64,000 nt of DNA from Escherichia phage EcF-vB, in the sequence record PV683228.1; one strand, given 5' to 3'. Below, piece after piece: positions 39,647-41,233 of this stretch; position 1 is the stretch's first letter; every line of letters begins with the position of its first letter. A program made the position numbers and the translations under genes. The notes beneath the pieces are model-generated. The model was not told where the DNA came from, did not search any database, and worked only from the letters and a program-made list of their open reading frames with translations.

Positions 39647-39725
39647 TGGTACTCCATATCGGATTCGAACCGATACATAACACAGATTTTAAGTCTGGCC
39701 TCTCTGCCAATTGGAGTAATGGAGC
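39647..39725 (-). tRNA. tRNA with anticodon UAA (Leu-type) but class I length; identity uncertain
   Basis: Anticodon loop CUUAAAA; T-arm AUCGG-UUCGAAU-CCGAU; no long variable arm. Confidence 0.5.
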
Positions 39726-39727
39726 AT

Positions 39728-39802
39728 TGGCGGGGGATGTTGGAATTGAACCAACTTCTTCGATTTCAAAGACCGAGGTTTTAACCTTGTAAACTAATCC
39801 CC
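39728..39802 (-). tRNA. tRNA-Gln (anticodon TTG)
   Basis: Anticodon arm UCGGU-CUUUGAA-AUCGA; acceptor stem with mismatches. Confidence 0.55.
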
Positions 39803-39811
39803 TTTAAATCT

Positions 39812-40369
39812 TTACTTTCTCAGTGGATGAATAAAGAATGCCAACATAACTCTTTCCCTTGAGAATGCTCTTTCTTCTGGGACAACACTTTTTAGTTTCC
39901 ATCCAACATAAATTCTCCAGTAAAACTGTTTACCAAAGACTTTAATTGATGGGATAAAAGCGAATAATCCCCAAGCATTACTGTTCCACATTAGGAGATA
40001 ACCAGTCTGATTATCTTCAGGGTCAGAACTTACGTTGATATTACCTTTCCACTTAGTAACATCTTTTACATCTCTTCCTAATACATGGTAAGAGAAGTTA
40101 TAAGCTTTGTTTCTCCAGAGCCATCCGACTCTCTGCATGTAGACACCCAGCTTACCAATCTTTCTAATCTTAGCCCATCGTTTGACGTGGCCTTCATCAC
40201 CATCAATCGGGTTGTCATAGGTCTCCATCCATCTGAATCCAAAAGGTAGATGTCCTTTCTTCTCACTGTAGAATGGAACTACAAAAGGTGCTAAGATGAC
40301 TGCTAGGGTTGCTGCAATTGGGTCTAGTAAAGCTAAGAAAATCCATGAAGCATACTTCAAATATCTCAT
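39812..40369 (-). CDS. membrane protein embedded in tRNA array (185 aa)
   Basis: Hydrophobic N-terminus WIFLALLDPIAATLAVILAPFVVPF. Confidence 0.5.
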   Translation of the reverse strand: MRYLKYASWIFLALLDPIAATLAVILAPFVVPFYSEKKGHLPFGFRWMETYDNPIDGDEGHVKRWAKIRKIGKLGVYMQRVGWLWRNKAYNFSYHVLGRDVKDVTKWKGNINVSSDPEDNQTGYLLMWNSNAWGLFAFIPSIKVFGKQFYWRIYVGWKLKSVVPEERAFSRERVMLAFFIHPLRK

Positions 40370-40387
40370 TAAATAGCCTCTTTAAAT

Positions 40388-40463
40388 TGGCGCAGGATAA
40401 GGGATTCGAACCCCTATTAACAGCTTCGTAGACTGTTGCTCTATCCATTTGAACTAATCCTGC
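40388..40463 (-). tRNA. tRNA-Arg (anticodon ACG)
   Basis: Perfect acceptor stem GCAGGAU/AUCCUGC; anticodon loop CUACGAA. Confidence 0.7.
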
Positions 40464-40577
40464 TTCCCTACGAGAACACCATACAGTTTTTCACAAACTT
40501 TGTTTTTACGTCTGTTTAGGTATGACGCTCTAAACCTTTTTGCGATGGAGTTATTACTCATAGTGCTCTCCTCAAAT

Positions 40578-40655
40578 TGGTGTTCCAAGACGGATTCGAA
40601 CCGTCACTAATACAAGGTTTGAGCTTGCATCCTCTGCCAATTGGGATACTGGAAC
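40578..40655 (-). tRNA. tRNA with anticodon CAA (Leu-type) but class I length; identity uncertain
   Basis: Anticodon arm GCAAG-CUCAAAC-CUUGU; T-arm GACGG-UUCGAAU-CCGUC. Confidence 0.5.
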
Positions 40656-40656
40656 A

Positions 40657-40731
40657 TGGTACTCACTAAAGGACTTGAACCTTTTTCTTCATCTTGTAAG
40701 GGTGGTGTTTTACCATATAAACTAAGCGAGT
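40657..40731 (-). tRNA. tRNA, probable Val (anticodon TAC)
   Basis: T-arm AAAGG-UUCAAGU-CCUUU; anticodon loop CUUACAA with imperfect stem. Confidence 0.45.
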
Positions 40732-40734
40732 GTG

Positions 40735-40822
40735 AAAGAGGTCTGAAGTTGTGCCGCTAACTCAACTCCGTGGAATTTGTTACGGTCTTCAGTTGACACC
40801 AGCGGTCTTTCACTTGACCTCT
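40735..40822 (-). other. structured non-tRNA element inside tRNA array
   Basis: Terminal inverted repeat AAAGAGGTC...GACCTCT enclosing about 70 nt; no T-loop motif. Confidence 0.25.
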
Positions 40823-40826
40823 GAAT

Positions 40827-40903
40827 TGGTGCTGCTCACAGGACTCGAACCTGCATTTCCATCCTTACAAGGGATGTGTAATAGCCAATTATACGAAAGC
40901 AGC
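40827..40903 (-). tRNA. tRNA-Thr (anticodon TGT)
   Basis: Anticodon arm CAUCC-CUUGUAA-GGAUG; T-loop GGTTCGAGTCC. Confidence 0.7.
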
Positions 40904-40910
40904 ATTAATT

Positions 40911-40985
40911 TGGAGCATCCAGAGGGAATCGAACCCTCAACCTCAGTTTGGAAGACTGTAATTTTCCCGTTTAAACTATGGATGC
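40911..40985 (-). tRNA. tRNA-Gly (anticodon TCC)
   Basis: Anticodon loop CUUCCAA; T-loop GGTTCGATTCC. Confidence 0.65.
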
Positions 40986-40991
40986 ACTAAT

Positions 40992-41067
40992 TGGTGGAGA
41001 AGCAGGGAATTGAACCCTGTACTTAAGTTTGCAAAACTTATGTTTTAACCATGTAAACTACATCCCC
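40992..41067 (-). tRNA. tRNA-Ala (anticodon TGC)
   Basis: Anticodon arm UAAGU-UUUGCAA-ACUUA; T-loop GGTTCAATTCC. Confidence 0.65.
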
Positions 41068-41073
41068 AATGTT

Positions 41074-41150
41074 TGGTACAGGTGGAGGGAATTGAACCCA
41101 TCGTCTTACTGATTAAGAGTCAGCCGCATAACCATTTTGCTACACCTGCA
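41074..41150 (-). tRNA. tRNA-Lys (anticodon CTT)
   Basis: Anticodon arm GCUGA-CUCUUAA-UCAGU; T-loop GGTTCAATTCC. Confidence 0.6.
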
Positions 41151-41156
41151 TTAATT

Positions 41157-41233
41157 TGGTACACCTAGAGAGATTCGAACTCACACTGAGCAGATTCTAA
41201 GTCTGCTGCCTCTACCAGTTGGGCTATAGGTGC
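41157..41233 (-). tRNA. tRNA with anticodon UAG (Leu-type) but class I length; identity uncertain
   Basis: Perfect anticodon stem GCAGA/UCUGC with loop CUUAGAA; 5-nt variable loop; mirrored at 63917-63993. Confidence 0.55.

Follow-up and report, generated by a model that had tools for sequence, protein, structure and literature searches.

Escherichia phage EcF-vB (sequence record PV683228.1) was examined over a stretch of 64,000 nucleotides (nt), called the window here, in which three tRNA genes with the leucine anticodons UAA, CAA, and UAG lack the long variable arm. Textbooks and the recent literature on leucyl-tRNA synthetase (LeuRS) treat bacterial tRNA-Leu as long-armed. We found that the three genes carry the nucleotides by which E. 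coli LeuRS recognizes its tRNAs, that their scaffold is coupled almost exclusively to Leu anticodons, and that they are conserved in related phages. Most probably, they are working leucine tRNAs, which would be charged by the host LeuRS and would serve the TTA-, CTA-, and CTT-rich genes of the phage. As a kind, short-arm (type I) tRNA-Leu is already known from Streptomyces and from mitochondria. The genes in question and the array that holds them are the following.

39647..39725, minus strand: tRNA-Leu(UAA), short-arm (type I); ARAGORN, Rfam (47.5 bits), and layout parse
40578..40655, minus strand: tRNA-Leu(CAA), short-arm (type I); ARAGORN, Rfam (44.0 bits), and layout parse
41157..41233, minus strand: tRNA-Leu(UAG), short-arm (type I); ARAGORN, Rfam (57.3 bits), and layout parse
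63917..63993, plus strand: second, identical copy of tRNA-Leu(UAG), in the mirrored arm of the window; ARAGORN
38452..43581, minus strand: array of 26 tRNAs, all on one strand; ARAGORN and Rfam

ARAGORN detected 32 tRNA genes in the whole window, 26 of them in the minus-strand array, which serves all amino acids except Trp. An earlier reading made from the letters without database searches (the sequence-only reading) had placed the three leucine genes, and ARAGORN reproduced its coordinates and anticodons exactly. The Rfam tRNA model RF00005 (gathering score, 29 bits) matched each gene at full length (model positions 1–71), with 5′ ends identical to those of ARAGORN and 3′ ends stopping just before the CCA. 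The ARAGORN cloverleaf drawings and our own fixed-layout parse were also concordant for all three. This agreement of ARAGORN, Rfam, and the manual parse on both ends and on the anticodon rules out a parsing error or a wrong anticodon frame, a concern that the sequence-only reading had itself raised.

Each of the three tRNAs has a 7-base-pair (bp) acceptor stem followed by U8 A9, a 3-bp D stem with an 11-nt D loop (CAAUUGGCAGA or CAACUGGUAGA; consensus CAAYUGGYAGA), a 5-bp anticodon stem with a 7-nt anticodon loop containing U33, a variable region that forms no stem and ends in GU, a 5-bp T stem with the T loop UUCGAAU, and A73 followed by a CCA that is encoded in the genome. tRNA-Leu(UAA) is 79 nt long, with a 7-nt variable loop, A73, G1-U72, a C27-U43 mismatch, and the anticodon loop CUUAAAA; tRNA-Leu(CAA) is 78 nt long, with a 6-nt variable loop, A73, and the anticodon loop CUCAAAC; and tRNA-Leu(UAG) is 77 nt long, with the 5-nt variable loop UCAGU, A73, G1-U72, and the anticodon loop CUUAGAA. 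These three anticodon loops, as well as the perfect anticodon stem GCAGA/UCUGC of tRNA-Leu(UAG), had been read correctly before. The earlier length of 77–79 nt is also right, with the qualification that the encoded CCA is counted in it, and the variable loops, given as roughly 5 nt, are indeed short and can be refined to 7, 6, and 5 nt. None of the three has a long variable arm in the class II sense (more than 10 nt with a stem). As the sequence-only reading had noticed, the long-arm tRNAs of the array belong to Ser and Tyr only, namely Ser(gct) with 93 nt, Ser(tga) with 90 nt, and Tyr(gta) with 88 nt.

To compare these tRNAs with those of the host, E. coli K-12 leuW, leuZ, and leuX were laid out in the same register, and the identity elements of tRNA-Leu were taken from published lists (PMC9976931, PMC6614811). 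A73, A15-U48, G18G19, and A20a are essential for E. coli LeuRS, and neither the anticodon nor the long arm is required, so that arm-less variants remain active (PMC9976931). The parse found in the three phage tRNAs all the elements that PMC9976931 lists as required. The core tertiary set, comprising U8-A14, the A15-U48 Levitt pair, G18G19, A20a, and T-loop U54, U55, C56, and A58, is complete in each of them; inspection of the discriminator and the variable arm, as had been proposed, gave A73 in all three and no arm in any. The phage tRNAs share with the type II tRNA-Leu of E. coli the 7-bp acceptor stem, U8, the 3-bp D stem, a D loop of 11 nt (CAAYUGGYAGA in the phage versus NAAYYGGUAGA in E. 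coli), the GU (U48) at the end of the variable region, a 7-nt T loop starting with UUC and containing A58, and A73-CCA; the G1-U72 pair of phage Leu(UAA) occurs in leuZ as well. They differ in having variable regions of 5–7 nt, whereas leuW, leuZ, and leuX have 13–15 nt in genes of 85–87 nt, and they are also A+U-richer, with A9 instead of G9 and C13 instead of A/G13. Supportively, published tRNAscan-SE isotype scores for phage Sf14, whose tRNAs are syntenic with those of the window, are highest for Leu in all three cases (67.4, 49.1, and 60.2; PMC12482277), and the tRNAscan-SE-based annotation of phage pEC-M719 likewise gives Leu. Thus, ARAGORN placed no anticodon differently, and no isotype other than Leu ranks first in the Sf14 scores.

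The coupling of this scaffold to leucine was then examined with an anticodon-free pattern, CCCAAN{1,2}GGYAGN{30,35}GTTCGA, whose second gap leaves room only for a short variable region. Within the window, only Leu(CAA) and both Leu(UAG) copies match it, with none expected by chance. Leu(UAA) differs from the pattern at one D-stem base, and all three fit in register into an alignment of 130 short-arm tRNAs (A1, described below) and have the shared type I features, that is, UA at positions 8–9, a 3-bp D stem, C13, a variable loop ending in GU, and A73. In IMG/VR, the pattern was found on at least 120 viral contigs. Among the matches listed, 125 of the 126 ARAGORN tRNAs containing the pattern bear a Leu anticodon (taa 57, tag 28, caa 25, gag 10, cag 4, and aag 1), the remaining one being His; all six Leu anticodon types therefore occur on the short-arm scaffold, and almost no others do. 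The loci of these listed matches hold 143 Leu tRNAs with a variable region of no more than 8 nt; of these, 135 have A73 and 123 have a 3-bp D stem. In the same loci, every Ser (14–25 nt) and Tyr (10–17 nt) variable region is long. SerRS and bacterial TyrRS use the long arm, whereas LeuRS does not. Loss of the arm in Leu together with its retention in Ser and Tyr is therefore the distribution predicted for an arm that can be lost only where it is not read by the synthetase.

Conservation was examined among the phage records. The tRNA region of the window matches 349 phage records and shares 95–96% identity with that of Felix O1-like E. coli and Salmonella phages (Felixounavirus, Ounavirinae), the group to which the window is assigned. 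In the Felix O1 RefSeq record, each of the three equivalent positions bears a tRNA-Leu annotation and has unchanged neighbours, and the gene order of the array is the same in Felix O1, in Michonne, and in the Sf14 list (PMC12482277). The genes are thus already in the databases as tRNA-Leu, in records that do not flag the missing long arm. Felix O1, Citrobacter phage Michonne (Mooglevirus), and pEC-M719 carry Leu(UAA) and Leu(CAA) genes with 100% identity to those of the window, although the tRNA regions of Michonne and pEC-M719 are overall only about 84–86% identical to that of the window. Erwinia phage Roscha1 (Kolesnikvirus) and Pectobacterium phage Arno18 carry other Leu sequences, all of 77–78 nt, and only their Ser and Tyr tRNAs are long. 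Taken over Michonne, Roscha1, Arno18, and pEC-M719 (all Ounavirinae, the last two with no assigned genus), every tRNA-Leu is 77–79 nt long, and Ser and Tyr are long.

Alignment A1 brought together short-arm Leu tRNAs of the window, of Ounavirinae, and of viral contigs, 130 distinct sequences in all. The 21 pairs counted were those of the cloverleaf plus the 15-48 pair, and the controls were partners slid by 1–3 columns and 500 shuffles. Standard pairs occupied 97.4% of the cells, compared with 36–47% in the slid controls; compensatory changes on both sides occurred in 20 of the 21 pairs; the observed covariation score was reached by 0 of 500 shuffles; and A15-U48 was kept in 126 of 130 sequences. 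This pairing and covariation, together with the conservation across genera, indicate that short-arm tRNA-Leu is a functional RNA family and not a product of decay, and they rule out that the three genes are pseudogenes. G1-U72 is the commonest first acceptor pair in A1 (columns 2/77; 62 of 130 sequences), followed by G-C (52 of 130). The crystal structure of E. coli LeuRS (EcLeuRS) is reported to contact A73/G1-U72 (PMC6614811).

At the Leu(UAG) position, two unrelated short-arm alleles were observed among close relatives. The allele of the window and Michonne begins GCACCUAUAGCCCAAYUGG..., and that of Felix O1, pEC-M719, and Arno18 begins GGGAGAUUGAUGGUAAUUGGUAAACC... and has a D arm built differently. 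The coordinates of the position are 41157–41233 in the window, 3681–3758 in locus L001, 3559–3633 in L366, and 5167–5244 in L364. Such a pair of alleles suggests cassette replacement within the array.

Codon usage was determined for 824 Leu codons in 31 long open reading frames (ORFs) from the nonduplicated part of the window. The G+C content of the window is 39%. CTT made up 27.9% of these Leu codons, TTA 26.8%, CTG 14.9%, TTG 14.2%, CTA 10.9%, and CTC 5.2%. In E. coli, by comparison, about half of the Leu codons are CTG, TTA and TTG account for about 13% each, and CTA for about 4%. By their anticodons, the three tRNAs are predicted to read codons that the phage over-uses. Consistently, the Sf14 study classed its three Leu tRNAs as agreeing with the codon preference of the phage (PMC12482277). 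The tRNAs would be transcribed together with the rest of the 26-gene array and excised by host RNases with the CCA end pre-encoded. The host LeuRS would then charge them with leucine by reading A73 and the corner at which the D loop meets the T loop (U8-A14, A15-U48, G18G19, and A20a within the 11-nt D loop that a 3-bp D stem closes), and the absent long arm would not be needed by this enzyme. On the ribosome, the UAA anticodon would decode UUA and UUG, the CAA anticodon UUG, and the UAG anticodon CUA and probably further CUN codons. Ordinary codon supplementation is in our judgement the best-supported mechanism, and we hold it with good confidence. We also think it probable that E. coli LeuRS charges the phage Leu tRNAs, because they keep A73 and the listed EcLeuRS elements, and G1-U72 in Leu(UAA) and Leu(UAG).

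Several points weigh against this interpretation. Fan et al. 2019 (NAR 47:6369, PMC6614811) found no charging of the Streptomyces coelicolor short-arm tRNA-Leu(CAA) by E. coli LeuRS; the enzyme is described as charging only type II tRNA-Leu (PMC6614811); and its C-terminal domain contacts arm nucleotides 47f–47i, as cited in the same paper. For Sf14 Leu(UAG), the isotype margin is thin, with Leu at 67.4 and Ile2 at 65.7 (PMC12482277). A scan of the tRNA array for promoters and terminators gave counts at chance level and was not taken as evidence, and the predicted charging is deduced from sequence, as are expression, processing, and use on the ribosome. The anticodon loops also depart from those of the host. 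Leu(UAG) carries A37, whereas E. coli leuW has G37, the site of m1G37, and C38 of Leu(CAA) breaks the A36-A37-A38 motif used by MiaA and TrmL on host tRNA-Leu(CAA). The host modifications m1G37 and i6A37/Cm34 would differ accordingly, and the phage Leu tRNAs probably carry anticodon-loop modifications other than those of their host counterparts. Nevertheless, the claim of Fan et al. conflicts both with the charged arm-less E. coli constructs (PMC9976931) and with the occurrence, in phages of E. coli and Salmonella, of Leu tRNAs that are short-armed and conserved.

The short form was not confined to Ounavirinae. A blastn search with the Leu region showed that Leu(UAG) is 78–81% identical over 68–90 nt to tRNA-Leu of unrelated phages, in which the matching genes measure 75–78 nt by ARAGORN and 73–76 nt in the GenBank annotation. 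Short-arm Leu tRNAs were found in the following phages.

Acinetobacter phage vB_AciJM_313 (unclassified): taa and tag
Cronobacter phage CR9 (Vequintavirinae): tag
Mycobacterium phage ValleyTerrace (Bixzunavirus): gag and cag, with a caa gene annotated as 74 nt and cut at the locus edge
Streptomyces phage Evy (Samistivirus): tag
Enterococcus phage EFGrKN (Herelleviridae): tag

Long-arm phage genes exist too. Unlike the genes of the window, Leu(UAG) of phage T5 is 85 nt long, and Leu(UAA) of the T4-like Serratia phage LC53 has 85 nt with a long arm; both, like the genes of the window, belong to tRNA arrays of enterobacterial phages. The frequency of the short form was estimated by scanning IMG/VR with a pattern for Leu(UAA) that admits short and long arms alike. 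In the newly fetched loci, the variable loop was 5 nt in 12 of 94 Leu(UAA) tRNAs and at least 11 nt in 82 of 94, and 8 further matches in loci already found with the short-arm pattern bring the short-arm share to about 20 of 102, or roughly 1 in 5, for a pattern that fixes parts of the D and T loops and for contigs that can include host tRNAs next to prophages.

Cellular genomes were searched in a species-representative set, where the short-arm pattern occurred on at least 120 genome loci. Among the matches listed, 93 of 94 tRNAs under the pattern bear a Leu anticodon and 92 of 94 have A73, and in 78 loci it is the sole tRNA. By our own count, Actinomycetota make up roughly 70% of the 80 titles listed, including Nocardioides, Gordonia, Nocardiopsis, Micromonospora, Rhodococcus, Corynebacterium, Bifidobacterium, and others; the genomic matches listed from this set include no Enterobacteriaceae. 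Across genome loci L243–L362, the short-arm Leu tRNAs mostly have a UAA or CAA anticodon with A73 and are mostly single-copy, again among the matches listed. A few genomic matches, from Planctomycetota, Bacteroides, Paraburkholderia, and others, lie within tRNA arrays, which may be prophage-borne. Short-arm Leu in Actinomycetota thus extends far beyond the one published Streptomyces case. In the literature that could be searched, which leaves most subscription journals outside, no paper describing phage or viral short-arm tRNA-Leu was found, only a general remark on class I ‘takeovers’, and the spread of the form in phages appears to be undescribed there. Taken together, the identity set of E. 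coli LeuRS, the coupling of the scaffold to Leu anticodons, and the Sf14 isotype scores uphold the idea of the sequence-only reading that these may be unusual Leu tRNAs as far as leucine is concerned. They are less unusual than was supposed, because the short form is common in phages and Actinomycetota and the GenBank label is already tRNA-Leu.

The origin of the phage genes was assessed by identity over 66 shared core positions. The window Leu tRNAs have median identities of 0.60–0.67 to other short-arm Leu tRNAs, with best values of 0.71–0.80 (apart from the self-like contig L093), and of 0.42–0.62 to E. coli Leu. The best short-arm matches include actinobacterial genes, and Leu(UAG) reaches up to 0.80 with actinobacterial chromosomal genes. 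A search of 5,426 complete E. coli genomes with Leu(UAG) gave no match at E ≤1e-3. Because they are closer to short-arm Leu than to E. coli Leu and have no match in an E. coli genome, the phage genes appear to belong to a short-arm lineage and not to be host genes with a recent loss of the arm, even if the differences in identity are modest. For the same reasons, recent derivation from a host tRNA-Leu through arm deletion is not favoured.

Leucine charging would also be compatible with an account in which the loss of the arm is itself adaptive. In that case, the short form would escape a host toxin or defence, cleaving or modifying, that is aimed at long-arm tRNAs, and phage translation would continue while host tRNA-Leu is attacked. 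We regard this as unlikely. It would agree with the frequency of the short form in viral contigs (about 20 of 102 sampled Leu(UAA)) and with its presence in phages of hosts that have only the long arm, given that 0 of 5,426 E. coli genomes match and that the three E. coli genes are 85–87 nt long. The closer kinship to short-arm Leu (medians 0.60–0.67) than to host Leu (0.42–0.62) suggests an imported and maintained lineage, and anticodon loops that differ from those of the host are a trait linked elsewhere to escape from anticodon nucleases. However, no defence targeting type II tRNAs, or tRNA-Leu through its arm, was found in the searchable literature; T5 and a T4-like phage keep long-arm Leu; and the arms kept by phage Ser and Tyr fit simple dispensability for LeuRS equally well. 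Many Actinomycetota carry the short form in single copy, where no escape role is needed, and nothing positive in this analysis supports escape. We are similarly doubtful of the broader proposition that short-arm Leu is a distinct lineage that moves among phages, is shared with Actinomycetota, and is kept for hiding from a host activity directed at the long arm. If it were true, a corollary would be that E. coli LeuRS charges a natural short-arm tRNA-Leu, contrary to the published generalization.

A role outside translation, in which the tRNAs would be decoys or sponges for host nucleases or synthetases or would have another tRNA-like function, is very improbable. Such a role draws on the report that EcLeuRS rejects one short-arm Leu tRNA (PMC6614811) and on the fact that charging and ribosomal use are predictions from sequence, whereas nothing in that sequence points to a decoy. 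The full translational tool-kit is kept (7-bp acceptor stem, A73, CCA, a 7-nt loop with U33, and the T loop UUCGAAU), all four helices covary, the anticodons match codons over-used by the phage, and the scaffold bears six Leu anticodon types, which a decoy for a single enzyme would not need. More improbable still is an identity other than leucine, one of the options of the sequence-only reading, by which a class I synthetase other than LeuRS would charge the tRNAs and recode UUR and CUA. The class I length and the small margin of the isotype models for Sf14 Leu(UAG) would allow it. The D arm, however, is that of tRNA-Leu position for position, and most other synthetases read the anticodon, which is Leu here. 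Phage proteins would have to tolerate substitutions at about 8% of codons, and the tRNA region and the tested part of the right end are 92–96% identical in DNA to phages annotated with the standard code. The leucine identity set and Leu as the top isotype for all three Sf14 tRNAs leave that option unsupported. Ordinary codon supplementation by leucine tRNAs therefore remains our preferred interpretation.

Three ORFs lie beside or inside the array, at 43747–45162, 38627–39361, and 39812–40369, all on the minus strand. Pfam detected only DUFs in them (DUF2828 + DUF7788; DUF7217; DUF7338), with no link to tRNA charging. The ORF with DUF2828 + DUF7788 is annotated as ‘RNA-binding protein’ in the Felix O1 RefSeq record, and the positions of the DUF-bearing ORFs within the tRNA arrays are fixed across Ounavirinae.

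The second copy of Leu(UAG) belongs to a giant inverted duplication, in which 41150–52250 is mirrored at about 53300–64000 through 18 inverted pairs, mostly 100% identical. The mirrored region starts at the Leu(UAG) gene, where inverted repeat I11 (41150–41326 versus 63824–64000) is 100% complementary, and shows large indels and a diverged pivot. The second arm lacks 42934–43995, which holds the tRNAs for Asp, Tyr, Asn, Met, Glu, and Pro and the 3′ end of ORF 43747–45162, and has about 720 extra nt between 56248 and 57013; near the pivot, identity falls to 88–89% (51485–52057 versus 53463–54012). In the reference phage pinkbiff, the DNA extends beyond the pivot and enters a divergent intergenic region in which repeats are annotated. 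The duplication looks like a head-to-head join of two nonidentical genome copies, which may be an assembly or foldback chimera or a rearranged molecule.

These data suggest that, in the loci surveyed, a sizeable share of phage tRNA-Leu is short-armed and phage Ser and Tyr never are, and that the short-arm scaffold is widespread in Actinomycetota assemblies, both undescribed in the searchable literature. If functional, the phage genes must work with the LeuRS of E. coli or Salmonella, which makes the published claim directly testable by a charging assay. For annotation, a tRNA-Leu of 74–79 nt in a phage is not an error; for synthetic biology, the genes offer tRNA-Leu scaffolds of compact size, possibly suited to E. 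coli LeuRS.

Among known systems, the type I tRNA-Leu(CAA) of S. coelicolor likewise has a short variable loop and shares its cell with long-arm Leu and a single LeuRS (PMC6614811), and Streptomyces was presented as the first case of both Leu forms sharing one LeuRS (PMC6614811). The scaffold of the genomic matches, UAGCCCAAYNGGCAGAGGC ... NCAGU ... A73, is the same as that of the window and mostly single-copy among the matches listed. Unlike the S. coelicolor gene, those of the window are phage-borne, comprise three isoacceptors, have no long-arm Leu partner in the phage, encode the CCA, and must work with an enterobacterial LeuRS. The engineered arm-less E. coli tRNA-Leu constructs of Larkin et al. 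2002, as described in PMC9976931, keep A73 and the D/T-loop corner as the phage Leu tRNAs do and, by that account, are still EcLeuRS substrates for charging and editing. Those constructs were made in the laboratory, some of them also without the anticodon arm, whereas the phage tRNAs come from natural, conserved genes. The variable loop of mitochondrial tRNA-Leu(UUR) is likewise short, and A73 and A14 serve as identity elements of this tRNA (PMC9976931). It differs from phage Leu in being served by a dedicated mitochondrial LeuRS, in its floppy, noncanonical structure, and in showing no sequence kinship.

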